IMG/VR virus record: IMGVR_UViG_3300045988_066341
DNA: 64,000 nt
Source of the DNA: a virus
Strand: one strand, 5' to 3'
Under the pieces are notes generated by a model. That model searched no databases, was not told the origin of the DNA, and was given only the letters and a program-made list of their open reading frames with translations. Positions 28,144 through 64,000 of this stretch are shown here, piece by piece (the stretch's first letter is position 1; each line of letters starts with the position of its first letter). The position numbers and the translations under genes are program-made.

Positions 28144-28539
28144 ATGGCAAAGAAACAGTTAAAAATCCCGTTTAAAGACGGGAGACCATGTAAATGGGTT
28201 AAGGATGTTCATGATGAGGAACGCGATAATTATGAGTTCGAGGAATGTCTTGAGATACACGGATTCGTTCGTGGATGCTCTTCGGCTGTAATGATATTAA
28301 GACCGGCAAATGATCATGGAAAGGATTTCAATTATGTCAATAGTATCTATTATCAAGTGTTCTTGACGGATAGCAAGGAGATAATACAAAATATGATGCA
28401 TGGGATCATATACGGGAAATGGACTTTTGTTAAGAGGGGAGAAAATTTTGGTATAAAATTGGTTAAGGTCTTACCTAAGATACATAAAATATCCCTTGAT
28501 ATGATCGCAAAGGATATTTTTAGGTCTGAGAATAAATGA
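28144..28539 (+). CDS. hypothetical protein (131 aa)
   Basis: ORF track. Confidence 0.55.
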   Translation: MAKKQLKIPFKDGRPCKWVKDVHDEERDNYEFEECLEIHGFVRGCSSAVMILRPANDHGKDFNYVNSIYYQVFLTDSKEIIQNMMHGIIYGKWTFVKRGENFGIKLVKVLPKIHKISLDMIAKDIFRSENK

Positions 28540-29561
28540 ACAATATGAAAGTATTATCATTATTTGATGGGATATCATGTGGATATCTAGCATTACAAAG
28601 AGCCGGTATACCTATTGGGACTTACTATGCCTCAGAGATAGACAAGACATGCATAAAGGTAAGTCAAAAACATTTTCCTAATATTATTCAATTAGGGGAT
28701 GTTAATAACTGGAGAACATGGGATATCCCTTGGAAAGACATAGATCTGGTCATGGGAGGGTTCTGTTGCCAGAGCTTCTCTAGCTCAGGTAAGGGTAAAG
28801 GATTCATGGACGCTCGTGGAAGGCTTTTCTTTTGCTTCTCGGACATCGTAAAGCATTTAAGGAAGGAGACCAAAGGTAAGGTCCTGTTCTTGGGCGAGAA
28901 CGTCCGGATGCGGGATGAGCACCGCTGGGTGATTACCGAGGAGCTTGGCGTGGAGCCGGTGGAGATCGATAGCGCCTTGGTCTCGGCACAGACCCGGCAT
29001 CGTCTTTATTGGTGCAATTGGTCGGTAGAAATGCCGAAAGACAAGCATATATCATTGGATGATATTTTAGAGCATGACAAGGGATGGAATCCGGGAGCCA
29101 TAAGAGGAAGATATATAGGAGTCATTGTCGGTAGAAGGATAGGAGAGGACGGGCATCGAAAGGATTATGACAAGAACGTGAAAATAACGCAATGTTTGGA
29201 GGTAAGAAGAGATAAAAATACTGTTTCTATTAAGAAAAGTAATTGCCTGACAACAGTCATGAAAGATAACGTGATATCATCGTTGCCTCCCGAAAGATAT
29301 CCTAATGCCTTTGACATGAAAGACAAATTCAGATACCTGACCCCGGTGGAGATGTGTAGGCTACAGACATTGCCGGATGATTACCTTGACGGGATAGCCC
29401 CAAATACGGCCATGTCTTTAGCGGGTAACGGATGGACAGTGGATGTGATAGCCCATTTGCTAAGAAGCATCGAACGTAAGCAGATAAATGATATTGTAAA
29501 GGAATTTCGCAAAATTACTGATGAGCTTATGTTCGGGTCATTAGAAACGGATATAATGTGA
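28536..29561 (+). CDS. DNA (cytosine-5)-methyltransferase
   Basis: Motif I LSLFDGISCG, motif IV GGFCCQSFS, motif VI ENV, RYLTPVEMCRLQTLPDDY, and motif X GNGWTVDV. Confidence 0.9.
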   Translation: MNNMKVLSLFDGISCGYLALQRAGIPIGTYYASEIDKTCIKVSQKHFPNIIQLGDVNNWRTWDIPWKDIDLVMGGFCCQSFSSSGKGKGFMDARGRLFFCFSDIVKHLRKETKGKVLFLGENVRMRDEHRWVITEELGVEPVEIDSALVSAQTRHRLYWCNWSVEMPKDKHISLDDILEHDKGWNPGAIRGRYIGVIVGRRIGEDGHRKDYDKNVKITQCLEVRRDKNTVSIKKSNCLTTVMKDNVISSLPPERYPNAFDMKDKFRYLTPVEMCRLQTLPDDYLDGIAPNTAMSLAGNGWTVDVIAHLLRSIERKQINDIVKEFRKITDELMFGSLETDIM

Positions 29562-39688: not shown

Positions 39689-39700
39689 TAACGAAAATAA

Positions 39701-39730
39701 GAAGGATAGGGTGATGATCTCCTATCCTTC
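39701..39730 (+). terminator. 10-bp hairpin GAAGGATAGG-n10-CCTATCCTTC closing the plus-strand block
   Basis: Lies 12 nt after the last plus-strand stop and is followed by TATTATTAT. Confidence 0.55.
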
Positions 39731-39875
39731 TATTATTATGTAAATCCATTTTTGGATTACATTAAGCATCAATAGTATAACTATTTATTTATACTCATCT
39801 TTCTTTCCTTGTTATCAAACATTCCATGCAAAATACAGTTATCATATATACAATTGTTGATCTTCCCTCAGTAGG

Positions 39876-39950: not shown

Positions 39951-42900
39951 CTATCTTCCTCTATCAAAATACCAATTAGCGTCCTCCCCAGACTCATCCT
40001 TATTCCTGCCTCCTAAGAAGAATCCCATCGTCATGCCGTTGGTCATCAACCAGTAGTCGGATGTCTGTTTAATATCCCTAGCCGTCTTGATATTATACCA
40101 TTGCTTACCAAACGAGAACTTCATGAGCTGCCTCCATAGCTTGCTCTCGCCCTTATACACGCCGGTCTGGACGGTAGCGAACGGATCCCAGTTCCGAGGA
40201 TCGGTAAGATCACCCAACTTACGGGCCGTAACCAGCGGGTCTTGTAACATGTCTATAGCGTTAAGCTCCATGAACGGGGATGCCTGGGAAGCGATCTCAT
40301 TGATCGTCCTAAACCCTATATAGGTAATGAACTGCCCGAACCAGCTATCCTCATTATCCTCCCTATATCCCATCAAAGCCCGTCCTATAGCCATCATCGT
40401 GGCGAATACCGCCATATTGATAATCGATCTCTTGATATTGATCTGCTCGTAGGGGGTAAGCTTATCATACTCTTCCTTAAGCACGTCATATGCCTCCCCC
40501 ATCCTGCCCTCGGACATCGATCCATAGACATTACCGGCCAGTCTCCATAACGTTCTCATATATCCTTCCTCAAACTGGTTGGTTTGGAAATTGAAACCGG
40601 CTTTCTTATACGCCCGCTGCACGGCCAATATAAACCATCCACGATGAGGCAGAACCATGTTAAGGATAGCGTTCCGGCTAGCCCCCACCCGGTTCTGCTC
40701 GTTCAAGGCGCCGTCGCAGATCTGCACCATGCTCCTGACCCTACTGGACAAAGTAGGTATGTATCTGTCTATAATATCCTTGTTAGCCTCATTCTTAGCC
40801 ACAATCTTTCCGTCCTTGACATCTACCATGTTCCACATAGAATAATCCCTTAAACGCTCCCAATCGCGTTTAGCCTCGTTAGCGGACATATTTCTGTCTT
40901 TCATCATCATCTCCTTGAAATTGGAGTATGACCAAAACTGACCCTCGTATAGGCGGGTATCATCCATGACCGATATAATGACCTGCGGATCCAACGGGGA
41001 GTTAAGAACCTCCATCATCTTAAACGGCAGGTCCCGGAATAAGGTTCTCCAGATTTTGTTATACGCTGCCGATCGTACACGGTTACGGACATTGAACACG
41101 CCTAGAGCCTCTCCAACGACATATAGCTTGTTGGTGCGGTTTATATCCCCGATCTCCGACACGTACGTACTTAACTGCTTCTGGGCTTCCCCATAGGCGT
41201 ATTTCATGGAGTCCTTGCTTATATACTGCCCTACCATACCCTCCAAAAGGAAGTTGGCCTGCCCGGTAAGGGCGCCGGTAGCCGCGACGAACGGGGAGAA
41301 GCCTAAGTTGGATCTGGATACGAATTTGGTAAACATAAGAGCCAGCTTATTAAGATCGACCTTATAATTACCTATATTCCATTCTGCCCGCTTATTATTT
41401 ATCCTAACATCATAGATACTGGCGTTAACCCAGTCCTGAAACATTCTATAGGCGTGAGTGGCCTCTGGGTTCTTACCGCCGTCGTATTGCGTCTCCAGCA
41501 TCATGTTCCTGTATCCCATGACATCATCCAAGGCCGCCCTCTTATACTTGTAAGAGGTCGCTTGTAAGGATAACATGGAATAGGAGTAGGCGAAGTCATG
41601 GGACACGTCATCGGCGTTCTCCAACTTACTAAGATAGTATTTGGGGATCATACGATATTTGTTATCGTTCTCATCAAGCCCTCCTAGGTCTTGTCCCTGA
41701 CCATGTATAGGGTCATCCACCCTCTCGCCAACGATATCACGTACGGCGTTGCCGATAGCCGCCTTCGGGTCAACCCCGGCCTGCACCATCCTCTCCACGC
41801 CGCCCTTGGATATTTGTGGTATCTGGTAGATATTCCTAAACCGCTCATCATAATCCTCCATAGCCTTACGGCTTATGTTAAGCAGCTCCTTCCTCATCTC
41901 CCACTTATCCTTATTGATCGTAGCTTCCTCCCCCTCGTTGGTAATACCGTATTTCTTGAAGAAAGCCTCGTTCTTGTACTTATCGAACCTAGGCGTATGA
42001 TATCCATAACCCAGATCGGGATTATAATTAGGATTACGAAAAGAACTCTCGGCGTCAGCCTCATCAAGCCACTGGTTATTGATCGTCAGATCGATCATAT
42101 TAATATCAAACCCGAAACGGGATACGCTCTCTTCCTTAGATATACCATTTTCTATGGCATCAAAGAACTCGGATACCTTATACGTACCGTTATTTATCTT
42201 CCTGACAAAGCCAGAATACCCCTTGGGAGAGTATCTCCTCATATAAGGATACAGCCGGGTCCTGGCGTACTCGACAAGGATCTTATCAGCCTTACCCATC
42301 GCTATGTCGTTAGCTAGCTTATTATTGAAGTCAGGACCGTATTTCCTTCTCAAAAACGATACCTCCACGGTCGTCCATGACGGATTCTTCCTAGATAGCT
42401 TAGCGGCCATCCTATCCACCTGACTCCGGGAGCGGGCAGACATATGTCCCTTGGCGAATTTAATCTCATCCATACCCTTGTCGTATACCATGGCATCCCT
42501 TAAAGCGTTACGGTAAGAATCCGTGACTCCACTCTCCACCGTATCAGGCATATCCATCTCAATAGCCTCAGCGGAAGCGGCGGCGTTAATAACGCTCTTA
42601 GCCTCAGCCAGACGATCATATAACTCGTTTATCTTTCTTAATGAGGCGGATCCACGTAACCTATCGAAATCATATTCCCCGTATCTCGTGCTATCCCGGT
42701 ACTGGATAAGCAAAGGCCTTAGCTGGTCATTGATCTCGTTTATTGTCGCCATCGCCTCCTCTACCTTCTCTATCCTTGATGATGATACAGATTGCTCCGT
42801 GATCTTATCAACCAGATTCTCGTAATAATCACCCTCCTCGGATCCCCACATATCCTTGGAGAAGCCAAGATGACCGCCAGCTAGCAGGAACTCAAACGCA

Positions 42901-45900
42901 GCCTTGCCGCCCTCGGACCGCTCTATCCCACGAAGTATCTCCTTGAACTCGGCGGAAGCCTTACGACCCTCGTTGGTATTCCCGAACTCCTCGGCCCACG
43001 CCTCGTCCCATGCCTTGATCTCCTCGGACATCATCAGAGCCTCGGATCCCTCTTCCTTTGGTGTCCCATCGGAATACCACTCGCTCTTGGCTATAGCCCT
43101 ATCACGAAGGATATCCAGATAAGATCTCCATGCTATAGGATCGGATTGGAATGCCGACCAATCCACTTTCCCGTCTTTCACGAATTTATCCATAGCCACA
43201 TATCTACTCCTGCGGATACGGGACATGAAATCGGATGTAGCTTGTGATACCCTGCGACCCAGCCTTTCCTCTACCTTCTTGTTCACATTCTCGATCTTAT
43301 CGTAATAAGCCTGCACCATAGGTTTCTCACGATTCTCATCCAACCACCTATTTATCGCATCGAGATATCGTTGCTGATCCTCGAATGTCATGGCCGAGAT
43401 ATCAAAATTCTGGATACTTGGCTTGAATATATGACTGACCTCCTTTGTAATAGGTTTATCACCATCATATCCTATGATATCATCACGAGTCTTGACCTTA
43501 AGCCCCTTATCAGATAAAAGCATGTCGACAAGTTGCTTCTCGGTCTTACCCGTAACCTTTTTAAGATCATATATATCAATAATAGCTTTCGCCTGCTCTG
43601 TCCGATACAGTAAATCGTATTTGGCGAAATCACGGGACGAGTCAAGGTAATCCGAGTTCTTCCCATTTATCTTCTGTATAAGATCCTCATTATCCTTTAT
43701 CCCCCATCCACGCTCTTTCATCATCTTCGTCATCTTATTGATATTAGCCACGCCCTCAACATGAGCGTCGTTATAAGCCTTGGCAAGACGTTGCCCTAAC
43801 ATGCCTAAGATAGCGTTCCCGCTATGTTCTAACGTCCCGAAAAACCGGGACATGACATTGATATCCTTATGGATGTTATCTATCAACTTCTTTATCCCAT
43901 TCCAATATCTTTCCGGGATATTAAACATCCGGAGCTGTCCATCCAGCCAATCCTCGTTACGATCGCTACGAAGGGCGTTTATATCAGACATAGATGTCTC
44001 AGCCATCCGCAATATATCATCCATATCCTCTACCATGCCAACCTTGTTGTTGCCATAATAATCCGCCGCCTGATTATTGACGAATCCACGAAGGTTCCTG
44101 ATTAACGGTACTATCTCCCCATATACGTTATCGATAACCTGTATCGTCTCATAATCCAATCCTTTTCCGCTCTTACGTAGGCTACTGGCAACCGTAACCA
44201 AATACTCCACCTCAGCCTTGGCGGTCGCTATGACACTCTTGGTGGATAACAGGTTGTTGTTTTTATTAAGCTCACCCCCGACTTGTCTCACCTTCTCGCC
44301 TATATCACGAAGAAGGGAGATACTCTCACCGATCCTCTGGCTTTGGCTTGATCTCATCCTCTGCAATCTAGTATACAGCCTTTCTAATGACCTGCCATTC
44401 TTGATCAGCTTATTAGCCACGTCAATGTCCGATAACGAGTACATGAGATGATCGCTATCCTTTAGCAGAAGCACGTCAAAGGCGCTTGGATCATCAGCTA
44501 ACGCCGACTCCTTTATCCTGTCAAGTACCTTATTCAAATCCGATCTTTGGCTGGAGAAGAAATTACGTATAGCTCGTACCATCCTGCCAAACAAGGAGAG
44601 CTGGGCGTCCTCGGACGAGGCCAGATCCTCCACCGCCTGTTCCATGCCCGGTACGAACCGCTGGGCCAACGTCTTACCTAGGATCTCCCGCTTCACCATC
44701 CGATCCAGTTCCTCCCCTTGGTATTCCTTCCCATACACCTCATAGTAACGACCGGCGAATTGATTCCATAATGGCGTGTCGACAACAGAGTCCAGAACCT
44801 CGTCAATCTCCTGCTGATTACGATAAGTATCGATCAAGAAGTGAGCCACCTCCTCATTAAGATCCTCTACCGTAGCTCCCTCAGCCAGGGCAATAACCCC
44901 ATTAGCCATATCGGATAAGGCCCTAGCCGAAGGCTCGACACCATTACGCATCTTATACTTATCCATATATTCGGACATACCCATCACACGGATACCTAAC
45001 GTGGATAAGATGTTGGTGATATCAGTCCTGTTCTGAAGATCCTCCGCCTTCTCATTCTCAATAACCCCACGGACATTACTTCCGTACAAGGCGTTATCCT
45101 CCATCATCAACGACAAGGCTAGCTCCATGAACCCATCATACTTATTATTAAGCTCCTCAAACTTACCTTGCCTTAACATGCCCTTTATCTCCGATCTGCT
45201 TACCGTAACCTTCTCCCCTGATGTCGTGATAAGATCAAGATCGTTATTTACCTCCGTATCAAAACCGATGGAGCCTAATACGTTCATCTCAGAAGACATA
45301 CTACCAAACCTGTTCCTTAGTCTAGACAAGGCGTCCATAGCGTTATAGATCTTAAGACCATCAGAGTTGCCGGCTCCGGTAAGATAATACCTATCCCCTA
45401 ACCTTATACGCTCCCCGCTCAACAGACCTTTCTTGATAAGGTAATTGACAAACCCTCCACGAGTGCTTATATTAGAGCCTGAGCTGATACCAAGGACCGG
45501 TATGAATGACTCGCTGTTGTTAAGGGTTATGGAGGACGAGCCAAAGGAGATATCAGCCGTACCGGACGGGACGTCACTCTCCTCGACACTGCCGGCCAAG
45601 AACCCGGCCTCGATCCGCCCGCCGGACGAGCCTTTTATGACGTTGGCGTAAGAGTCGTGTATCTTGCCGTCATCCGATCTAAAGAACAACCTGGGCTCCC
45701 CGCTATCATAAGCAAGGAGATTGTTTATCTGGTTCATGGGCTTACTAAGCTCCTTATCCACCTCCGATAACCTATCCCTTGACCTAGTGAGAAGCGTACG
45801 CATATCCGTATCATTCATCTTAATATCGAGACCCATGGAACGAAGGGCGTCACGGATAAACGACACTATCTTATCCCATAAGCTGGAGTCCGGATTGGAT

Positions 45901-47195
45901 TCGGCAAAGGTAGCCATAAACTCCTCGGCGGCTATAATCTGATTGCCATATCGGTCTAAATAAGACCGCTGGTCAGCCTCGTCCATCGAATCGAATATCT
46001 TCCTCATCGTATCATCAAAACGATTACCAAGAAGATCTCTAAGCCCTTTATGCGCAACTACCTCATGCAAGATAGTTCTCTCCAAATCCTGCTCATCCTC
46101 TATATTGTCAGCTACGATAGTGATGGTATCGGTATCCGTGTCATACCATCCCTTGCTCTTGGACATCATATCGGCGTAATCATGATCACTTACCTCACTT
46201 CTTATATCGTCAATCGAAACGATATTCACCGTAGTACCTAATTTAGCGAGACCAGATACTTTCTCCGACATACCGGCCTTTACCTCGCTTACGTCCCTGA
46301 ATCTCAAATCCCCAGGTCTCTTCCTTGTCACGACGACGGCCGTCATGCCAGACGCCATTCCGCTGTTGCCGGGATTCGCAGTCTCCACCTCGAACATACC
46401 CCCAAGCTCACGCTCGACATATTCTTTAAGCGACGACCTCGTGAACCCTTTTTGATAGGCCCTGATATTCCCCTTTGAATCAGTGACAAGTATCTCCGAC
46501 GGATCGTCAAGCTCTATTTTCTGCTTTTGTGCGGACACGCCCTTAGCGTCACGGACATTTATGAACAACTTGCCTCCGACCTTCAATTTGTCAGCCATTG
46601 ATTTAAGTACGTCGGATCTCCAATCATCAGGGATCACGTTCAATACAGCGTTGCTGATTATGTAATCATACTTCTTGTCTATATCCTCGTACCTCAAATA
46701 CGTGGGAGGGACCCTTTTGGATGACGGGTAAGGCTCGACATCATCGACATCCATCCCCATATCACGTAACGCCCGCGTGCCAACGCCAAGACCTGACGAG
46801 GCGTCCAATATAGATTTACCCTCCATACCTTCGTTGGATATAAAATCACCGATCCTCTTATACGTGTTCACGGTAGACGTGATCTGCGTGGAATGCTGAC
46901 CGGTAGAAGTGGTCTGGCCGCTAAGCCACGTGGGATATTCCTCGAACAGCCGTGACGACGTCCTAAACCTAAGGGATGACCTTAATCCCTCTTTCTTGGC
47001 GTTAGACACCCAATCCCCGAACCTGGACCTGAACTTATCGTTATACGTGGCCATATAAGCCTCGGCGGCCTTATCAAGGTCACTCACGGCGGCTATACCC
47101 GATATCTTATCGAACAAGGTAGATACCTCGCCGGAAGGGGTCAAGACACGGGTTATCTTACCCTCCTTATTCCTTTTAATTACGCAACTCGACAT
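39951..47195 (-). CDS. 2,414-aa multidomain (polyvalent-type) late protein with embedded class I SAM-methyltransferase fold
   Basis: Uninterrupted ORF. The start is set at ATG 47195 (MSSCVIKRNKEG), 16 nt downstream of a -7 box. The methyltransferase motifs are ILDASSGLGVG, DVDDVEP, DYIISNAVLNVI and LKVGGKLFINV. Hydrophobic helices lie near the C-terminus. Confidence 0.9.
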   Translation of the reverse strand: MSSCVIKRNKEGKITRVLTPSGEVSTLFDKISGIAAVSDLDKAAEAYMATYNDKFRSRFGDWVSNAKKEGLRSSLRFRTSSRLFEEYPTWLSGQTTSTGQHSTQITSTVNTYKRIGDFISNEGMEGKSILDASSGLGVGTRALRDMGMDVDDVEPYPSSKRVPPTYLRYEDIDKKYDYIISNAVLNVIPDDWRSDVLKSMADKLKVGGKLFINVRDAKGVSAQKQKIELDDPSEILVTDSKGNIRAYQKGFTRSSLKEYVERELGGMFEVETANPGNSGMASGMTAVVVTRKRPGDLRFRDVSEVKAGMSEKVSGLAKLGTTVNIVSIDDIRSEVSDHDYADMMSKSKGWYDTDTDTITIVADNIEDEQDLERTILHEVVAHKGLRDLLGNRFDDTMRKIFDSMDEADQRSYLDRYGNQIIAAEEFMATFAESNPDSSLWDKIVSFIRDALRSMGLDIKMNDTDMRTLLTRSRDRLSEVDKELSKPMNQINNLLAYDSGEPRLFFRSDDGKIHDSYANVIKGSSGGRIEAGFLAGSVEESDVPSGTADISFGSSSITLNNSESFIPVLGISSGSNISTRGGFVNYLIKKGLLSGERIRLGDRYYLTGAGNSDGLKIYNAMDALSRLRNRFGSMSSEMNVLGSIGFDTEVNNDLDLITTSGEKVTVSRSEIKGMLRQGKFEELNNKYDGFMELALSLMMEDNALYGSNVRGVIENEKAEDLQNRTDITNILSTLGIRVMGMSEYMDKYKMRNGVEPSARALSDMANGVIALAEGATVEDLNEEVAHFLIDTYRNQQEIDEVLDSVVDTPLWNQFAGRYYEVYGKEYQGEELDRMVKREILGKTLAQRFVPGMEQAVEDLASSEDAQLSLFGRMVRAIRNFFSSQRSDLNKVLDRIKESALADDPSAFDVLLLKDSDHLMYSLSDIDVANKLIKNGRSLERLYTRLQRMRSSQSQRIGESISLLRDIGEKVRQVGGELNKNNNLLSTKSVIATAKAEVEYLVTVASSLRKSGKGLDYETIQVIDNVYGEIVPLIRNLRGFVNNQAADYYGNNKVGMVEDMDDILRMAETSMSDINALRSDRNEDWLDGQLRMFNIPERYWNGIKKLIDNIHKDINVMSRFFGTLEHSGNAILGMLGQRLAKAYNDAHVEGVANINKMTKMMKERGWGIKDNEDLIQKINGKNSDYLDSSRDFAKYDLLYRTEQAKAIIDIYDLKKVTGKTEKQLVDMLLSDKGLKVKTRDDIIGYDGDKPITKEVSHIFKPSIQNFDISAMTFEDQQRYLDAINRWLDENREKPMVQAYYDKIENVNKKVEERLGRRVSQATSDFMSRIRRSRYVAMDKFVKDGKVDWSAFQSDPIAWRSYLDILRDRAIAKSEWYSDGTPKEEGSEALMMSEEIKAWDEAWAEEFGNTNEGRKASAEFKEILRGIERSEGGKAAFEFLLAGGHLGFSKDMWGSEEGDYYENLVDKITEQSVSSSRIEKVEEAMATINEINDQLRPLLIQYRDSTRYGEYDFDRLRGSASLRKINELYDRLAEAKSVINAAASAEAIEMDMPDTVESGVTDSYRNALRDAMVYDKGMDEIKFAKGHMSARSRSQVDRMAAKLSRKNPSWTTVEVSFLRRKYGPDFNNKLANDIAMGKADKILVEYARTRLYPYMRRYSPKGYSGFVRKINNGTYKVSEFFDAIENGISKEESVSRFGFDINMIDLTINNQWLDEADAESSFRNPNYNPDLGYGYHTPRFDKYKNEAFFKKYGITNEGEEATINKDKWEMRKELLNISRKAMEDYDERFRNIYQIPQISKGGVERMVQAGVDPKAAIGNAVRDIVGERVDDPIHGQGQDLGGLDENDNKYRMIPKYYLSKLENADDVSHDFAYSYSMLSLQATSYKYKRAALDDVMGYRNMMLETQYDGGKNPEATHAYRMFQDWVNASIYDVRINNKRAEWNIGNYKVDLNKLALMFTKFVSRSNLGFSPFVAATGALTGQANFLLEGMVGQYISKDSMKYAYGEAQKQLSTYVSEIGDINRTNKLYVVGEALGVFNVRNRVRSAAYNKIWRTLFRDLPFKMMEVLNSPLDPQVIISVMDDTRLYEGQFWSYSNFKEMMMKDRNMSANEAKRDWERLRDYSMWNMVDVKDGKIVAKNEANKDIIDRYIPTLSSRVRSMVQICDGALNEQNRVGASRNAILNMVLPHRGWFILAVQRAYKKAGFNFQTNQFEEGYMRTLWRLAGNVYGSMSEGRMGEAYDVLKEEYDKLTPYEQINIKRSIINMAVFATMMAIGRALMGYREDNEDSWFGQFITYIGFRTINEIASQASPFMELNAIDMLQDPLVTARKLGDLTDPRNWDPFATVQTGVYKGESKLWRQLMKFSFGKQWYNIKTARDIKQTSDYWLMTNGMTMGFFLGGRNKDESGEDANWYFDRGR
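46323..46865 (-). other. SAM-dependent methyltransferase-like domain inside the giant ORF (track residues ~125-305)
   Basis: Motif I LDxxxGxG with downstream acidic residues and motif II/III-like strands. No DPPY-type motif was seen, so the substrate is unknown. Confidence 0.65.
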
Positions 47196-47211
47196 AACTT
47201 CATGTTTTTGA

Positions 47212-47219
47212 CAAAGATA
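47212..47219 (-). promoter_or_regulatory. -7 box TATCTTTG for the 2,414-aa gene
   Basis: Reverse complement of caaagata. It is followed by TCAAAAAC and lies 16 nt from ATG 47195. Confidence 0.6.
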
Positions 47220-47220
47220 A

Positions 47221-47250
47221 ACAAAAAGCCCCCACAAAAGAGCGGGGGCT
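47221..47250 (-). terminator. intrinsic terminator AGCCCCC-n10-GGGGGCT + UUUUUGUUU
   Basis: 7-bp GC stem (47227-47250) followed on the minus strand by a T-run. It lies directly after the DUF2829-like gene. Confidence 0.7.
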
Positions 47251-47273: not shown

Positions 47274-47597
47274 TCATAATATCATCCAATCGGTAGCCAG
47301 CATATCAGTCTGAGATGCTAACCAGCCATTTACGATAGTATCATCAGCGGCTTTCATACACAAATAAGCCGTGAACTTGATCTTGTCCGTTTCCGAGTCA
47401 CCATAATTATTAGCAACCCATTTCTTTACTGCATCAGGTAAGGATTTAACCTTATTCACGACCATGTCTGTAGACAAACAGTCTTCAGGACGCTGAAAAA
47501 TAAACATCCCTTTTCCATTCCATCCCTCACGGCAAGCCAACTCTCCTTTCTTCACAGCCTCAATAGCCTCTCCAAATGTCAATCCTTTATCATTCAT
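47274..47597 (-). CDS. DUF2829-family protein (Tad2-like candidate)
   Basis: [34 protein letters not shown] ... [18 protein letters not shown] fits the DUF2829 N- and C-terminal signatures. The start is set at ATG 47597, 22 nt after the -7 box. Confidence 0.7.
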
Positions 47598-47619
47598 GAT
47601 TGTAATTATTTTAATTAAA

Positions 47620-47627
47620 CAAATATA
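47620..47627 (-). promoter_or_regulatory. -7 box TATATTTG in the 44-nt spacer before the DUF2829-like gene
   Basis: Reverse complement of caaatata. Confidence 0.45.
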
Positions 47628-47641
47628 GGTAAAAATAATCA

Positions 47642-48415
47642 TTATTCTTCAACTTTCCCTAACACGACATCCGATATACATCTGGCACACCATCCTACCA
47701 TATAAGCTATAGGCTCTTGATTGTCAGCATGAAACTTGATCCCTAACTCGCTAAGAATATCCATAGAGACATGAAACGCCTCGTGAGAGATCATAGACGG
47801 ATCAACATCCTTGTCATCTATCCACACGACAACCAGTTCCCCGTATTTACCGGTATCCTTAAATCTCACCATAGGGAAAGTAGTCATGGATGGCTCCGAT
47901 CCCACCTCCATCTCAATCTCAATCTCAGAGTCATCCCTTGTCGTAAACCTGTCTATAACATCCTTTGGCTCGCACCCTTTCATCACGAACAAGCTCCTCG
48001 GATATATCTTAGGATCAAACTCATATACTATTTTATCCATTTTCTTTTCACCATTCTTTCTAATATTATGTTTCCCAAAAATAGGATCACGTGGATCCTT
48101 TTTTGGATTATAACTAAACACCTTATCAGTTAATTCTTTAAGTTGATTATTCATCTCCATAAGTCTTATAAAACGATCATTCGTATATGCCTTAAACTCA
48201 TAAACAGGCAACCCGGAAGAGCTGGATATCTCAGCGGAAGGGGATACGACTATAAAATCCCCATCATTAATAATTATGTGCTTATTATCACGCTCCACGG
48301 AATAATATCCATTTCTTTCTGTAACAGATATACCAAAACGTTCTATAGCCTTATTGATATTCACAATATCATATGAATGAAATTTGAATACCTCCGTATT
48401 TAAAGAATATATCAT
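47642..48415 (-). CDS. protein with C-terminal HExxH zincin-like motif (257 aa)
   Basis: HEAFH is encoded at 47771-47785 and is followed by ...IKFHADNQE. The N-terminal half is unassigned. Confidence 0.6.
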
Positions 48416-49228: not shown

Positions 49229-49888
49229 TTATCGTCCCATCATTCTCAATACGGTTCTAGCCGCAGCTTGCGCCCATGTCCAGCTGTCATTAGATGTTAC
49301 GTTAACCGTCTGTTGAGTACCATTTACATCCAAGTTAATAGTCTCCTTGTCAAGCTCGATAGTAGAGTCCCCAGCGGCTTGCGTTACCGTCACGTTAGCT
49401 GTCTGGCCACCAGCGGCAGTTACTTTCAATGTAGCTGTCAGTTCCTCGATCGTGACGTTGGCCGGTACGTCCGAGATCGTGATGCTCCAAACGAACTCGC
49501 CAGCGGCTCCGGGATCGTCGGCGATAATCGCTCCGTTAGCCGTAGTCTTTCCAGCCGCCGTGTAGTTAGCAGGGAGTCGTAACGTAAGCCCGTTCTCCTC
49601 AGCCGGCGTGACCGCGAACGTAAGCTTAGTACTGTTAGACTTACCGGTGATGGTAACATTACCACCTGTCTTTTGTACGGAAGCGTTAGGGCTGTCTGAT
49701 CTTACCACCTCAGCAGCCGCTGCCTGATTAACTACCAACGCCTTCTTAGCCCCGCCGTTCGTGGTGACCGTAAGGTTGATAGTGCGTTGAAGACGACCGG
49801 TGTGTTTATCACCGGAGAAATTAACCGCCTGATCTCCTGATCCTGATACCGGGTCTACGGTTACGAAACCGAATTTTTGTGATGCCAT
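49229..49888 (-). CDS. Ig/BACON-like repeat protein (219 aa), probable virion surface or decoration protein
   Basis: N-terminal VDPVSGSGDQAVNFSGDKHTGRLQRTINLTVTTNGGAKKALVVNQ parallels the 105-aa protein. C-terminal ...VNVTSNDSWTW. Ala/Thr/Val-rich beta-type composition. Confidence 0.6.
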   Translation of the reverse strand: MASQKFGFVTVDPVSGSGDQAVNFSGDKHTGRLQRTINLTVTTNGGAKKALVVNQAAAAEVVRSDSPNASVQKTGGNVTITGKSNSTKLTFAVTPAEENGLTLRLPANYTAAGKTTANGAIIADDPGAAGEFVWSITISDVPANVTIEELTATLKVTAAGGQTANVTVTQAAGDSTIELDKETINLDVNGTQQTVNVTSNDSWTWAQAAARTVLRMMGR

Positions 49889-56703: not shown

Positions 56704-58941
56704 TTAACTACACGAAAAATCTCGCATCAACTTATTTGTATTAGCAGTGTATTCATTAACTATCTTACTGGATGAGGGATTATCCTCTATCCTTGACAGG
56801 CGGTTATCGTCACTCCTTACCGTAACGTCACCCATCCTTCGTACCATGTTTTCTTGATATGATGATGGATCGGAGTATATAAGATCATCAACGAACCTGT
56901 ATATCGCACCATCAACCGTCTCACCTACCTTCTCATATAAGCCGGATTGGAATGACACGAAATCATCATACCTCTCACGAGCCAAGAACGAACCGTCCGG
57001 TCTCGCCTCGACGCCGCCGTTGACCTCCCGGAGCAGGCCCGGATTCCTTTGGTACAGATACCTGTAAAACCCGACATCCATCATCCTGTCCTGACTATCC
57101 AGATAGAAAAGGTTTCTCATGCTACTGTCACCGGACTCGATAGCCACGTCAAACAGAAGATCCCTTACCTGACCTTCCGGCAACGACATCTCCATGCTTT
57201 TTAACGTACCTCTGTCATGGTGGTTCAAAGATACGTTATAAAATCCATTAAAATCAAGGAAACGTAAGACATTATTATATAAATCCGATTTTTTTAACCT
57301 TTCCTTGATCTGGATCTTCCTCAACGAGGTACAGGATTTGATAAAATCCCGATCCTTTCCCTGCCTAGCCTCGTATCTCCTGAACTCCCGATCAATATCG
57401 ACATCATCCATCTCAGGAGTCACGGGATGTTGGTATATTAATCTGGTAAGGATCATGTTCTCTGTATTCGAGGATGAGATGTTGGACATAACTAGCTTCT
57501 TTATGTTATCCTTGACCACGCCAATATCGGAACGGGAAGCCCCGGCGGGGACCACGCCAGCCGGCAAGTACGAGGACCGCTCTATCCCGATATTGGCCAA
57601 CATCTCATAGGCCTGATCGGTGTCGGTTATCGGGGCTGTGTTATGGTACGTATTCCTACCCATATACAACATGCTCCTATCATACATATCGGAAGGGGAT
57701 GTATTCCCGGACCTTACATACACCATCCTATCCCCAGTAGAATAAGTATCCTGAACCTCGTATATCGGGTTCCCTTTTCCTGTTATCCTATCAAGATCGG
57801 AGATAAAGCTATCGTATACCGAATTGCCGGCCTGTATGGAAGACAACATGACATCCAGCGACGCCATAAGATCACGGATATCCTCCGGTCTGGATATAAT
57901 CATCTCATCGCTGATCGCCTCGCTTATATCCACACCCATGTCGGCAAGATCCATGGCTATGTCATGCAGACGTCCGGCAACGTCCTTGATGTCCTTAAAA
58001 TCATCCATATCGATTATCTCCCCAACCTTATCCCTTAGACCCTTCATATCCTTAGGCATACTGATATACGGTGTGGTACTATTGAAGTACGAGTCGGTAA
58101 TCGTATTTCCGTCCTGACTCCGAACCTCCATACGGGTCATATTACGATACGTGTCATACATCCGATCTGCGTAATCCTGATCCTCCTGATACCAGAGTGC
58201 CAAGGAAGGGTATGGGATGGAGGCGAAAGCCTGATCGAACTCCCGGCGGTCGCTGATACCGCCTACCGCCCTCATGATCGTATCCCTTACCTCTATTGGA
58301 TTCAAGCCCCTTCTCTTTCCTAACGAGTCATATGTATCCTCATATATCATATAATCATCACCAAGACCTGACTCGGAGGACAGGAAATACATATCCTTCT
58401 CATTAAGATTCCCCTCAGACATAAAATCGACAATCCTCCTCATCATATCCCTTACCCGCTCATACTCCGATCGGTTAGTCATGATATTATCAATCTCATC
58501 AGCGTCATACATCCCAGATCGCTCAAGATTGTACCTATTGAGGAATATATCACCGCCGGAAAGGAAGTTAGATACGATCATATCATTAAGATCATTGATA
58601 TTATCAACACCCAAGGAAGTAAGAGTATTATTAATATCCTTAACCTCATCAGCCATGAAATTGCCGGCGAAATAGTTCTTCCGCTTGATAAAGGACATGA
58701 CATCATCATACCTAGGTTCCCCATTACTATCCAGATCATATTCTGATGGCATGGACATCCAGTCGCCAAAGAAGGACACGAAGTCGGGGGAGTAGGCCGT
58801 ACCCCAGACCGATAAGGCCTGCTTCTGGTCGCCCAGCACCTCCATCGCCCTTTGGTATAATCCGGATGGTTGGTCGTTCGGGGCAAGGACATTATCTATC
58901 CCACCCTCCTTATTTTTTATAACATAACAAGATCGTCCCAT
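56704..58941 (-). CDS. 745-aa late protein sharing the N-terminal module of the 2,414-aa protein
   Basis: The start is set at ATG 58941 (MGRSCYVIKNKEGG...), 18 nt after a -7 box. About 65 aa align with the N-terminus of the giant protein (SC.IK.NKEG.I..VL.P.......L; A....TY...F.S.FGDW). Confidence 0.85.
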   Translation of the reverse strand: MGRSCYVIKNKEGGIDNVLAPNDQPSGLYQRAMEVLGDQKQALSVWGTAYSPDFVSFFGDWMSMPSEYDLDSNGEPRYDDVMSFIKRKNYFAGNFMADEVKDINNTLTSLGVDNINDLNDMIVSNFLSGGDIFLNRYNLERSGMYDADEIDNIMTNRSEYERVRDMMRRIVDFMSEGNLNEKDMYFLSSESGLGDDYMIYEDTYDSLGKRRGLNPIEVRDTIMRAVGGISDRREFDQAFASIPYPSLALWYQEDQDYADRMYDTYRNMTRMEVRSQDGNTITDSYFNSTTPYISMPKDMKGLRDKVGEIIDMDDFKDIKDVAGRLHDIAMDLADMGVDISEAISDEMIISRPEDIRDLMASLDVMLSSIQAGNSVYDSFISDLDRITGKGNPIYEVQDTYSTGDRMVYVRSGNTSPSDMYDRSMLYMGRNTYHNTAPITDTDQAYEMLANIGIERSSYLPAGVVPAGASRSDIGVVKDNIKKLVMSNISSSNTENMILTRLIYQHPVTPEMDDVDIDREFRRYEARQGKDRDFIKSCTSLRKIQIKERLKKSDLYNNVLRFLDFNGFYNVSLNHHDRGTLKSMEMSLPEGQVRDLLFDVAIESGDSSMRNLFYLDSQDRMMDVGFYRYLYQRNPGLLREVNGGVEARPDGSFLARERYDDFVSFQSGLYEKVGETVDGAIYRFVDDLIYSDPSSYQENMVRRMGDVTVRSDDNRLSRIEDNPSSSKIVNEYTANTNKLMRDFSCS

Positions 58942-60850: not shown

Positions 60851-63800
60851 TTAGCAAGGATTTTCCGCCTCATTTTCTCCGGATACTACGTTACCGTCGG
60901 AAACCAAAGACTTGTCCTCGGCCGCCTTCGTAGGCGAGGCGAACTCCGATGGCAGATCCGGCAGGTTAGGGAACGAGACTTCCGTCTCCTCCTTGGATAC
61001 CTTGTTCTCCTTGATACTCATCCTAAACTTAGGAGCTATGAAAGGATCGTTGTTAAGATCGATGTTGATCGTAACGTCATTCATCAAAATATCCTCCTTA
61101 GTTCTGGAATCACCTATCCATCCTCTTACGTCAGCGGTCATAGGCATCCTGCTAGCCGCTTCCTTGACAGCTTTAAGCCGGTTCTTGATAACATCCACGT
61201 CTCCCGCCAGCGGAATCATATATGTCTTATTATCCAACCCTGATCTGGCTATAGCGTTATTAAGATCCATTATATCATCAATACTTACGCCTCCGCCTAG
61301 ACCCTCCGTAATCCTATCAGCCATCGATCCGATCATGGATGAGAATGACGATATATCCTGATTTTTCAATCTTACGGGGTACAGGTAATTTCTTCCATTT
61401 CCTGTCTTTATAGCTACGACCGGGATACGTGAATCTTTATAGTCACCATACTTGTCCCTGACGATAGCCGTACAGAACGGGAATATATTATACTTAATAT
61501 CATCCCTCATCGTAACCTCCCCATTCTCTATATATCCTACGCTCTCGACTTTACCAACCGTCTCGTTGGTAAAATCATTCTCGGATACCATCAACGTACC
61601 ATTATCATCACTTACGCTAAAATTAGGTCTTCCCGGCAAAACACTGGTAACTGTACCTACGAACGGTATATCAATCTCGCCAGTAACAGATCCTATATTA
61701 TCCCTATATAACTCAAAGGCCCTACTCCTTAAATCAGCGTTACTTCCTTTTGAATCCGGGTCATTGGCTTTCAGTACCGAGACGAAATTGCCGTCGCTAT
61801 CCACGATCTTAATAACCATATTATCAACCAGCTCTCGGTAAGCCGACTTAGTCTCATCAGAATTAGGGTCAACGGCGTTAAGACTATTGTATTTATCATA
61901 CAGTCCCTTGGTGTATGGATCTGACATATCCATCTTAAACCTTACCATATCACCCTTGCGGAGGCTAGCCGCTGCTTCCTGATTCACCGACTCGTTGTTA
62001 GATCCAAACGTATCACCCGTATAATAAGGGACAATAGATCCATCCTGCCCCTTGCGATACACCATGAACCAGATGGAGGTCGACAAGGCGGTTTGCCGCC
62101 CCAATATGACACCGGTAGCGTTCTCGAAAGCCTGAGCGTCATCCTCGCTAATCATCCATCTTGAGTGGTTATCTGACTCTATAACAGTAAATATGTCGGT
62201 TCCGTTGGTGAAATCCATCACCCTTCCATTATCAGTATCAGTGGCATCAGATCTTTTAAGCCCAAGACTGTCCATAAACCTGTCAAGTCTCATTCCGCCA
62301 ACCTCATAATACATGACCCCACCGATCTCTCTCTTCTGGGCCATCAACACCACCGGGTTCTGGGCGGCGTTAACTTCCGTCCTGCCGGTGGATGTCCCGG
62401 GTTCGCTCTCTGTGAGGACATCACCCATAGGTATGGATTTATCGTAATCCTTGACAGCTATACTTCCATTATCATACAACCTCATCCATTCCACGAATTG
62501 AAGAAGAGGATCATCAGAATAGTTATTGATAATATCAATAGCCTCATTAAGCTTATCCTGATCAACCTCATTGCCATTGTCAGCCTCATTCATAAGATCG
62601 TTATAGGTCTTTATAGCCTCCTTAACCTGATCCTGATCAAGACCATTAATATTCATATCTATGATATCATCAATATTATCCTTAATATTATCTGATACAT
62701 TATCATTGATCTTTAATCTATCTATCATTGACTTAGCCCTATTTATCCTAGCTATAGGATTATCGCCAAATCCTTTTACAAGATTATTAATACGATCCTT
62801 ATTGTTATCATATATCTGCTTTTCCCTAGGAGATAAAATATCCTCATTACCGTTCCAGATCTTTATGGCTATATCATTGGCTCTATCATCTGAAGGATTT
62901 ATAATATCCTCATCATCAGGAACCCTCTCAACTATATTACTTTCATCAGCCTTAATCTCATTCTCCATAGATCTGGCTATCATATGATTATATGTCTTGA
63001 ACATAAATGCCTCATCCTCTCCTATAAGACCATCTTGGTAAGCCTTGTCTATGGCTTGATCATTAGCGTAAAGGGCGTTTGCTTCAGGATTATCAGTATT
63101 CCTGAAATCATACTTGCTATCATCCTCCTCATAAGTCTTACCCCATGCGTTCGACAATATCTTCATGAACCCGCGCTCCTGCGCCCGGATGAATCTTCTG
63201 TCACGCATACGACGAAGAGACTCGTTTATATTCTTATAAGCCACAAGATTATGACGATACTCGCTAAGCAACGCCATGGCCTCTTTATGATTATCGACCC
63301 CACGGGTAGACACGGCATTCTCAAAATCAACTATAGTCTCATAAGCCGCCATAAGATCTGAGACGCTAATCTTAGAATCATTATCATTTAAAGATAACTT
63401 AGATATATCCACATCTGAATTAATCAACGTGCTTAACTTTCTCTCCAAGGCAATTCTTTCTTCCGTCAATTTAAGAAGCCTATCATTCTCCTCAGCCAAC
63501 TTAGTCTTATCAGACTCAATTGCTTCCTTCGATGCAACCTTTTGTTGAGTATTTAAAATATTCCTCTCCATCTTCCGTATATCATTCGTCAGCTTCCGGA
63601 GTTTTTCGAGAGCCTTGCTTGAATCAGGATTAAGATGAGAGTATATATCAAGGGCATCACCTATACCCGTCTTATATATCCTGTTTAACTGATTGGTGAT
63701 ATCATTCAAATTATCCTTAGCCTCAATACCGTTATATACCATATTGGAGATATAGGCGTTAAAAGACCTGTTCGGGATACCCTCAGTAAGTGAGTCGGCG

Positions 63801-64000
63801 AATCTGTTGGCCATGGTAAAATTATCCACCTTCTTATTAAACTCGTTGACAAGATCGGCTTTATACTCATTAACCTGCTCATCCGTCATATTCATATCGG
63901 ACGCTATATCGCTATTAGGTATAGATTCGACTACCGTCCTGAAATTCTCCTTGGTATCATCCAACATCCCCATCTCCGAATCATAACGGAGACGATTGAA
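60851..64000 (-). CDS. large late protein, more than 1,049 aa (5' end outside window)
   Basis: The frame stays open from the track ATG 63973 to the window edge (FNRLRYDSE upstream). Coiled-coil and Asp/Asn-rich N-terminal part; no motif recognised. Confidence 0.85.
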   Translation of the reverse strand, partial: FNRLRYDSEMGMLDDTKENFRTVVESIPNSDIASDMNMTDEQVNEYKADLVNEFNKKVDNFTMANRFADSLTEGIPNRSFNAYISNMVYNGIEAKDNLNDITNQLNRIYKTGIGDALDIYSHLNPDSSKALEKLRKLTNDIRKMERNILNTQQKVASKEAIESDKTKLAEENDRLLKLTEERIALERKLSTLINSDVDISKLSLNDNDSKISVSDLMAAYETIVDFENAVSTRGVDNHKEAMALLSEYRHNLVAYKNINESLRRMRDRRFIRAQERGFMKILSNAWGKTYEEDDSKYDFRNTDNPEANALYANDQAIDKAYQDGLIGEDEAFMFKTYNHMIARSMENEIKADESNIVERVPDDEDIINPSDDRANDIAIKIWNGNEDILSPREKQIYDNNKDRINNLVKGFGDNPIARINRAKSMIDRLKINDNVSDNIKDNIDDIIDMNINGLDQDQVKEAIKTYNDLMNEADNGNEVDQDKLNEAIDIINNYSDDPLLQFVEWMRLYDNGSIAVKDYDKSIPMGDVLTESEPGTSTGRTEVNAAQNPVVLMAQKREIGGVMYYEVGGMRLDRFMDSLGLKRSDATDTDNGRVMDFTNGTDIFTVIESDNHSRWMISEDDAQAFENATGVILGRQTALSTSIWFMVYRKGQDGSIVPYYTGDTFGSNNESVNQEAAASLRKGDMVRFKMDMSDPYTKGLYDKYNSLNAVDPNSDETKSAYRELVDNMVIKIVDSDGNFVSVLKANDPDSKGSNADLRSRAFELYRDNIGSVTGEIDIPFVGTVTSVLPGRPNFSVSDDNGTLMVSENDFTNETVGKVESVGYIENGEVTMRDDIKYNIFPFCTAIVRDKYGDYKDSRIPVVAIKTGNGRNYLYPVRLKNQDISSFSSMIGSMADRITEGLGGGVSIDDIMDLNNAIARSGLDNKTYMIPLAGDVDVIKNRLKAVKEAASRMPMTADVRGWIGDSRTKEDILMNDVTINIDLNNDPFIAPKFRMSIKENKVSKEETEVSFPNLPDLPSEFASPTKAAEDKSLVSDGNVVSGENEAENPC

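Follow-up and report, generated by a model that had tools for sequence, protein, structure and literature searches.

The largest complete open reading frame (ORF) on a 64,000-nucleotide stretch of viral DNA (IMG/VR virus record IMGVR_UViG_3300045988_066341; this whole stretch is called the window below) encodes a protein of 2,414 amino acids (aa). With a probability of roughly 70%, this giant gene is read here as encoding an epsilon-crAss-like cargo protein of the gp65/gp49/gp035 family that carries an inserted methyltransferase-peptidase cassette of the polyvalent type, and that would serve as a processed, injected effector. Members of that family appear, from homology and from what has been found for individual phages, to be very large proteins, mostly helical, that are synthesized late, packed in the capsid and expelled with the DNA into the host. 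A predicted S-adenosylmethionine (SAM)-dependent methyltransferase, a putative HEXXXH metallopeptidase and a virion-protein body are found together in one polypeptide, as is the rule for polyvalent proteins. Three things are new here: the family has a slot for exchangeable effectors, it is present in phages of the Epsilon group, and its N-terminal module recurs in other proteins. The original prediction, made from the letters alone, had called the product a possible injected, polyvalent anti-restriction protein comparable to P1 DarB; its polyvalent nature is borne out by the cassette and its packaging is supported by homology, but the likeness to DarB is not supported. Coordinates of all features are collected in Table 1.

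The body of the giant protein

Behind the cassette, some 1,700 aa had been described as helical sequence that could not be assigned. That description falls, because the region matches a large family of virion proteins over its full length. The profile phrog_37651, annotated as "virion structural protein", aligns with aa 1698-2360 at E=2e-79, and an exhaustive phmmer search with aa 1215-2414 recovered 947 cluster representatives, 302 of them below 1e-30, in alignments that span query aa ~490-2400. These representatives are mostly 1,850-2,150 aa long, with a few reaching 3,000-5,000 aa. In tblastn, csAssE-Sib (36% identity, aa 494-2408) is followed by the Cellulophaga phages phi4:1 and phi17:2; after these come crAss001 gp49, matched at its C-terminus, and a good number of further crass-like phages. 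BLASTP against crAss001 gp49 gives two collinear matches (aa 1760-2369 with gp49 aa 710-1334, E=8e-24; aa 699-965 with gp49 aa 143-470, E=5e-5); the C-terminus also matches phi14:2 gp65 (E=5e-8), and gp65 and gp49 match each other over about 1,000 aa (E=3e-32). A megablast search of a phage collection with the giant gene gave no match. On these protein-level matches the body is the epsilon-crAss-like ortholog of the gp65/gp49/gp035 family, which the original prediction had overlooked.

Several relatives have been observed in virions. Both phi4:1 gp035 (1,914 aa) and phi14:2 gp65 have been annotated from tandem mass spectrometry (MS/MS) virion proteomics, and crAss001 gp49 was found in virions by mass spectrometry and was placed, among three polymerase-associated proteins, in the cargo zone of the capsid (PMC10172136). 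Drobysheva et al. (bioRxiv 10.1101/2020.03.07.982082) describe the gp65 orthologs as bearing a zincin-like protease, as packaged with the polymerase and, in some phages, as joined to that polymerase in a single polyprotein; the crAss001 structural paper (PMC10172136) and a Crassvirales review describe cargo proteins that are held inside the capsid and tail barrel and then ejected. Both gp65 and gp49 have been annotated or discussed as RNA-polymerase-associated. By its homology to these proteins the 2,414-aa protein is very probably packaged in the virion, and its gene sits in the minus-strand late/virion block. Yutin 2021 reported the transcription block to be absent from the Epsilon group; contrary to that general statement, phages of this group do, judging from the body and its relatives, have a gp65/gp49 ortholog. 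In csAssE-Sib the ortholog (L001 11401-17803) is annotated as two overlapping ORFs, one of 281 aa with the N-terminal module and one of 1,885 aa, a layout that may reflect a gene that is truly split, a frameshift or an error in the sequence.

Of the hydrophobic helices that had been placed near the C-terminus, one stands, at the position that had been indicated, with a Kyte-Doolittle mean of 1.56, and no others pass the threshold, this being the sole segment above 1.3. It aligns with VAHFLAVAAAIGLIEWSDDRD of gp49 and is a possible membrane anchor.

Profile searches of PDB sequences with the EExxH domain described below and with the C-terminal 815 aa gave no match, and the idea that the body is related in sequence to the phi14:2 polymerase was rejected on that ground. 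The idea that the giant protein is itself a virion RNA polymerase was also rejected: its sole DxDxD-like string, DTDTD, lies inside the peptidase module. The DFDxD motifs of crAss001 and phi14:2 reside in gp50 and gp66, respectively.

A replaceable methyltransferase-peptidase cassette

Between the N-terminal module (N-module) and the body lies a cassette of ~420 aa, consisting of the methyltransferase followed by the HEXXXH peptidase. It is a replaceable insert at a hot spot, a feature overlooked in the original prediction. Contig L004 is 92-93% identical in DNA to the window over the N-module and the body, with an unrelated stretch of ~500 bp replacing positions 47010-45710. Three proteins that are 84-97% identical over shared sequence (P0065, P0066 and P0067) carry an unrelated segment of ~170 aa at the cassette site, P0070 carries the peptidase only, and P0071 and P0073-P0075 carry LPD23-type HExxH domains together with the peptidase; in P0088 and phi4:1 gp035 the N-module runs directly into the body, without an insert. 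The length of the insert was measured in the 104 family representatives in which both landmarks were detectable. Inserts of 60-1,050 aa are present in 45 of these (60-150 aa in 18, 150-300 aa in 10, 300-600 aa in 8 and 600-1,200 aa in 9), while the other 59, with less than 60 aa between the landmarks, are without one. In a Pfam scan of 16 expanded members, ART-PolyVal was found in 6 and LPD23 in 5, with Kinase-PolyVal, Radical_SAM, DUF6782 and DUF3990 found once each.

The cassette (aa ~75-476) is 41-65% identical to modules of Prevotella-type polyvalent proteins, the methyltransferase portion by itself being 46-65% identical. In seven such proteins the methyltransferase and HEXXXH modules adjoin in the order seen here; elsewhere they stand apart. 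The matching proteins carry, in addition, LPD1/3/5/23/38, ART-PolyVal, ddrB-ParB, InPase, PBECR, MuF_C and DarA_C domains. One Prevotella-type polyvalent locus with the same methyltransferase, that of P0107 (L007 6106-17686), has LPD3, LPD13 and ddrB-ParB neighbours and is flanked by housekeeping genes (dnaE, thioredoxin, enolase, maf), with no phage structural genes within 10 kb; since it lies among such genes and is not an obvious prophage, the donors are not claimed to be prophages. The cassette shows no GC anomaly (0.478, vs 0.475 in the body), so that composition gives no sign of a recent transfer. Measured against a 93%-identical relative, the ratio of nonsynonymous to synonymous substitution rates (dN/dS) is 0.10 over the cassette, its methyltransferase giving 0.055 and its peptidase 0.098, and 0.06 over the body; the cassette is under purifying selection.

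The methyltransferase and its likely class of substrate

The class I SAM-methyltransferase fold recognized in the original prediction is supported on several sides. Pfam Methyltransf_23 (PF13489) matches aa 114-220 at E=1.3e-6, its 28.7 bits lying over the 27-bit cut-off; in the AlphaFold2 (AF2) model of aa 1-500 the domain has a predicted local distance difference test score (pLDDT) >90; and Foldseek comparison of this model with the PDB gives 512 matches at E<=1e-3, the best 50 of which are all methyltransferases. Motif I (ILDASSGLGVGT) lies at aa 129-140, and the strings LDASSGLGxGT and DVEPY are conserved among the homologs. The best structural matches (E~1e-7, 13-16% identity) are GSMT and GNMT, which are glycine/sarcosine N-methyltransferases, along with PsmD, CypM, NmbA and CcbJ, the closest solved folds thus being small-molecule or peptide N-, C- and S-methyltransferases; no DNA methyltransferase is found among the best 50 of the 512 matches. 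The DPPY-type motif had been noted as missing, and indeed neither a (D/N/S)PP(Y/F) motif IV nor the C5 motifs are present in the domain or its homologs, in which motif IV reads, invariantly, SNAVLNVIPD. NCBIfam gave sub-threshold ArsM/TehB-type matches only, PADLOC a weak match only (mad2 of the methylation-associated defence system, E=0.0011), and a PDB sequence search with the whole protein a weak methyltransferase match only (3e23, E=0.018). The predicted enzyme is akin to the methyltransferases of small molecules and peptides and not to those of DNA.

Some class I methyltransferases of this broad kind act on RNA, and the alternative that survives best is that the domain methylates RNA (the 5'-end or 2'-O positions of early phage transcripts, or host tRNA), with the whole protein acting as an injected subunit of a polymerase complex rather than as the carrier of a free effector. 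The association of gp65 and gp49 with RNA polymerase and the N-module held in common with the phi14:2 polymerase gp66 would fit this. It is nevertheless considered unlikely: the top structural matches of the domain include no RNA methyltransferase, the same methyltransferase is found in polyvalent proteins that have no polymerase, near-identical phages dispense with the cassette, and no DxDxD polymerase gene has been identified in the window.

Anti-restriction by DNA methylation, in which a capsid-packaged protein like P1 DarB would modify incoming phage DNA in cis against type I/III restriction, was the function first proposed, and is now regarded as very improbable. The giant protein does resemble DarB in being large, capsid-associated (here by homology) and provided with a methyltransferase domain; polyvalent proteins P0080, P0082, P0085 and P0090, which have the same methyltransferase, also hold AAA_34/Helicase_C_4 modules of the DarB type, and the weak mad2 match points in the same direction. 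DarB, however, combines an N6-adenine DNA methyltransferase with an SF2/SNF2-type helicase, and neither is present in the giant protein. The analogy fails because there is no DNA-type motif IV (of the N6-adenine/N4-cytosine, N6A/N4C, kind), no C5 motif, no DNA methyltransferase among the best fold matches and, as had already been remarked, no helicase (none in Pfam at E<=1), and because the early block of the phage includes a gene for a C5 cytosine DNA methyltransferase, so that a dedicated enzyme outside the giant protein is available for DNA modification. The NCBIfam matches are of another type, and close relatives such as L004 manage without the cassette.

Least probable of all is that the protein is a purely structural, tape-measure-like or ejectosome tube component in which the methyltransferase and peptidase ride as decaying, functionless passengers: the body is indeed long, predicted helical and provided with one hydrophobic helix, and family members are annotated "structural protein", but the dN/dS values of both cassette domains are low, their catalytic and binding motifs are all intact, the same domains have been kept in other elements, the crAss001 cargo proteins are held in capsid and tail barrel and ejected (as cited above from the structural paper and the review), and crAss-like phages have short tails and are not known to possess a tape-measure protein.

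Putative peptidase domains and junction motifs

The two (H/E)EV(V)AH motifs that had been pointed out, HEVVAH and EEVAH, are both conserved, the first in the cassette and the second in the body. In the cassette peptidase, H377, E378 and H382 of the motif and the later E425, which belongs to a Glu helix (AAEEF at aa ~421-425), are conserved at >=90% in 28 cassette modules. The AF2 model of aa 1-500 gives the order beta, alpha, alpha, beta, beta, alpha (HEXXXH), alpha, alpha (Glu), with pLDDT 85-93. The module is matched by phrog_14770 (E=2e-15) and weakly by Pfam M76 (E=0.04) and by positions 2051-2234 of the N4-type virion RNA polymerase profile phrog_2206 (E=0.018). Up to three copies of it are present per polyvalent protein. 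Iyer et al. 2017 (PMC5512222) found HEXXXH zincin-like metallopeptidase variants to be typical of polyvalent proteins and proposed that they process the polypeptide. From its motifs and model, the cassette peptidase looks intact.

The motif LRFR stands directly before the methyltransferase and again at its boundary with the peptidase, and the same pattern, [LIVM]R[FY]R, also brackets the methyltransferase modules in polyvalent proteins. In a set of 44 polyvalent proteins (from P0076-P0120), (L/I/V)R(F/Y)R occurs 51 times vs 6.5 +/- 2.7 in shuffles, an enrichment of about 8-fold; it usually lies within acidic linkers and may serve for processing or docking.

The EExxH domain of the body is strongly conserved: among 103 diverse family members, E781, E782, H785, Y817, Y821 and E837 never vary and D762 is kept in 99%. 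The EEFAH of crAss001 gp49 aligns in register with EEVAH, and phi14:2 gp65 has HEIMH at the equivalent relative position; a MAFFT alignment sets this HEIMH under EEVAH and, further on, ELYEYY under RYYEVY and HEF under REI. A hidden Markov model (HMM) of the domain did not find phi14:2 gp65. The AF2 model has a mean pLDDT of 73, rising to ~90 at the motif helix, and a Foldseek search of BFVD with it returned only family members and non-significant polyvalent proteins. The domain is probably a variant of the gp65-type zincin-like domain in which the first metal-binding His has become Glu.

The N-terminal module

The N-module of ~65 aa, said earlier to be shared with the 745-aa protein of the window, is indeed common to both (BLASTP, 33% identity over 72 aa, E=1e-10), and an HMM search of the window finds it in just these two ORFs. 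Its profile matches the N-terminus of PDB 6VR4, the phi14:2 virion RNA polymerase gp66, at E=0.014 in a search of 177,635 sequences, and aa 24-55 of native gp66 at E=2e-7 in a search of 6 proteins. The native gp66 N-terminus (L006 12932-13140, phi14:2 g066) reads MACKIENIKYKGKEVESKLGSQLIDIFNDLDRAKEEYDKLSSPEFIAKFGDWINDEVERNVNEDGEPLL and agrees with the N-module in its MxC start, its FGDW motif and its DGEP junction. The module is clearly common to phi4:1 gp035, the N-terminus of crAss001 gp49 resembles it by eye, and several further cargo proteins open with M-x-(x)-(x)-C; all aligned sequences keep Cys4. When a database was searched with the profile, short fragments were all that came back. The fact that the module is common to several different packaged proteins suggests that it may be a leader or signal for cargo loading or ejection, and the module can be put to the test as the candidate signal by which proteins enter crass-like capsids.

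The 745-aa protein itself matches gp66 by BLASTP in the N-module (aa 26-76, E=2e-4) and more weakly a second time (aa 28-124 with gp66 aa 271-375, E=0.015), and is 30% identical over its full length to a 752-aa protein of csAssE-Sib (L003 32651-34909). The latter appears as "DNA-dependent RNA polymerase" in Table S1 of PMC11054128 and as hypothetical in its GenBank record. The 745-aa protein has a DVDID at aa 514, the first Asp of which is Tyr in csAssE-Sib; no conserved DxDxD is evident in it.

A possible sequence of events

The ancestral layout would have been that of an N-module of ~70 aa joined directly to a body of ~1,900 aa with a zincin-derived EExxH domain, the C-terminal region and one hydrophobic helix. 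In the lineage of this phage the two-domain cassette would then have been inserted at a permissive site behind the N-module, its source being the pool of Prevotella-type polyvalent proteins of mobile elements. During assembly or exit the N-module would direct the protein into the capsid cargo zone or lead it through the tail. After ejection the (L/I/V)R(F/Y)R junctions could be cleaved by the cassette peptidase, the EExxH domain or both. The methyltransferase so released would act, within the first minutes of infection, on a target other than DNA, be it RNA, a protein, a peptide or a small molecule, while the body would serve the role of the gp65/gp49 family, in the ejection apparatus or with the virion RNA polymerase.

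Several points weigh against this reading of the giant protein as a packaged, processed and injected effector. The virion MS/MS and the ejection evidence come from homologs, to which the 2,414-aa protein is tied by homology alone. No conserved DxDxD polymerase gene was found adjoining the giant gene in the window, its upstream neighbours being small genes, including the Tad2-like gene described below. The N-module models poorly (AF2 pLDDT 45-65). The idea of cleavage at the junctions draws solely on the enrichment and position of the motif, and the Foldseek list for the aa 1-500 model is filled by methyltransferase matches. For the EExxH domain, Foldseek against the PDB gave no zincin and a best E no better than 0.4; a local hhalign comparison did not place its motif in register with that of the cassette peptidase, and its link to the HExxH of gp65 is one of orthology, relative position and MAFFT placement.

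It is tempting, if rather doubtful, to extend the proposal further: the N-module (MxxC ... FGDW ... D/N-G-E-P) might be a general capsid-loading and tail-exit tag for Crassvirales cargo, with the slot behind it taking swapped effectors (methyltransferase, ADP-ribosyltransferase, kinase, radical-SAM) that zincins would release at (L/I/V)R(F/Y)R, in which case the methyltransferase would be a new injected effector acting on a non-DNA host target. Seen as a chassis for exchangeable injected enzymes, the gp65/gp49-type protein ties the concept of the polyvalent protein to Crassvirales cargo, and the natural cassette-plus and cassette-minus variants in near-identical genomes allow a direct comparison of the role of an injected non-DNA methyltransferase.

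Relationship to known systems

The giant protein is like gp65, gp49 and gp035 (the last of phi4:1/phi17:2) in the homology of the body from aa ~491 to 2414, in the N-module (clear for gp035, by eye for gp49), in the C-terminal hydrophobic helix, in having a putative zincin-type motif at the equivalent relative position, in lying in the late/virion block, and in the occurrence of its homologs in virions as seen by mass spectrometry. It differs from all of them in its 420-aa methyltransferase-peptidase insert behind the N-module, from crAss001 gp49 in being ~800 aa longer in the middle, and from phi14:2 gp65 in having EExxH where gp65 has HExxH; also, the giant gene does not adjoin a recognizable DxDxD polymerase gene.

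With the polyvalent proteins of Iyer et al. 2017 (PMC5512222) it has in common homologous methyltransferase and HEXXXH modules, often adjacent there and in the same order, and with the Prevotella-type ones (LPD3/LPD23/InPase/ddrB-ParB/ART-PolyVal) the same (L/I/V)R(F/Y)R flanks and the joining of disparate enzymes in one virion-associated polypeptide. Typical polyvalent proteins are strings of effectors, however, whereas here two predicted effector domains are set on a 1,900-aa virion protein. When the main text of Iyer et al. 2017 was searched by terms, no Methyltransf_23-type methyltransferase of this kind came up. The virion RNA polymerase gp50 of phage N4 and N4-like polyvalent proteins are likewise giant, encapsidated and ejected and have a zincin-type HExxH, properties that are here predicted from homologs, and N4-like relatives have additions of ART, lysozyme or PBECR; the giant protein differs from N4 gp50 in having no T7-like polymerase domain and no detectable overall homology to it.

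Gene boundaries and genomic surroundings

Table 1. Positions of the giant gene, its parts and nearby features in the window (aa positions refer to the 2,414-aa protein)
Feature	Protein position	Window coordinates	Strand	Basis
Complete coding sequence, 2,414 aa + stop codon		39951..47195	-	ORF call, homolog starts
N-terminal module (MxxC ... FGDW)	aa 1-70	46986..47195	-	BLASTP, HMM, profile matches
Replaceable cassette, DNA-defined (1,300 bp)		45710..47010	-	comparison with contig L004
Junction motif LRFR, directly before methyltransferase module	aa 75-78	46962..46973	-	
Predicted class I SAM-dependent methyltransferase, non-DNA type	aa ~85-296	46308..46943	-	Pfam, AF2, Foldseek
Second junction motif LRFR, methyltransferase/peptidase boundary	aa 297-300	46296..46307	-	
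Putative HEXXXH zincin-like metallopeptidase module	aa ~320-470	45786..46238	-	motif conservation, AF2 order
HEVVAH motif	aa 377-382	46050-46067	-	
Conserved body	aa 491-2414	39954..45725	-	PHROG, tblastn, phmmer, BLASTP
EExxH domain	aa ~720-850	44646..45038	-	conservation, alignment to gp49/gp65
EEVAH motif	aa 781-785	44841-44855	-	
Most conserved C-terminal region, common across Crassvirales	aa ~1640-2400	39996..42278	-	
Single conserved hydrophobic helix, then acidic patch YREDNEDSW	aa 2257-2275	40371..40427	-	
Bidirectional hairpin, downstream of giant gene where early and late blocks converge		39700..39731	.	
Intrinsic terminator, between Tad2-like gene and giant gene		47227..47250	-	9-bp stem, 7 G-C pairs, T-run; strong
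Tad2-like gene (Thoeris anti-defence 2 / DUF2829), immediately upstream of giant gene		47274-47642	-	PF11195, E=1.5e-22
219-aa protein with BACON domains		49229-49888	-	
745-aa protein with the same N-terminal module (its aa 1-75 at 58717-58941)		56704..58941	-	BLASTP, HMM
C5 cytosine DNA methyltransferase, early block		28536-29561	+	PF00145, E=1.5e-30

The minus-strand ORF extends over 39951..47237, with a TTG as its most upstream start; the ATG at 47195, which gives 2,414 aa, is taken as the real start because 64 near-identical homolog clusters of 2,413 aa, found by database search, share the start MSSCVIKRNKEG and because the upstream TTG (47237) and its extension fall within the terminator hairpin. 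The gene had been credited with a terminator-promoter unit of its own. The upstream terminator is strong, but the candidate promoter, between this terminator and the ATG, is a TAnnTTTG-like box (TATCTTTG) read by eye and stands as unproven.

The two coding blocks of the window differ in composition: the plus-strand replication/early block (1-39700) has a GC content of 35-43%, mostly 35-41%, and the minus-strand virion/late block (39951-64000) one of 41-48%, about 45-48% from 40 to 58 kb. The sign of the GC skew flips at the convergence point near 39.8 kb.

On the upstream side of the giant gene, DNA similarity to contig L004 stops across the Tad2-like stretch; because L004 has a different small gene there, the Tad2-like gene is apparently a variable accessory gene. 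The region 3' of the giant gene also varies among close relatives (L004 10558-12137; L008 8988-9935), one contig having a T5orf172/MUG113 homing-endonuclease-like gene and a Cas12f/TnpB-like fragment, and another an anti-repressor (Phage_pRha/ANT).

BACON domains are typical of crAss-like phages of Bacteroidota. Besides the 219-aa protein of the window in which they are present, csAssE-Sib likewise has a Bacteroidetes-associated carbohydrate-binding (BACON-type) tail protein. Finally, the minus-strand ORF at 60851-64000, which is cut off by the edge of the window, shares 31% identity with aa 586-1604 of a 2,208-aa "structural protein" of csAssE-Sib and is probably another giant cargo protein; its csAssE-Sib relative has HEPYIH near the C-terminus, comparable to the HEAFH at aa 2157 of crAss001 gp47.

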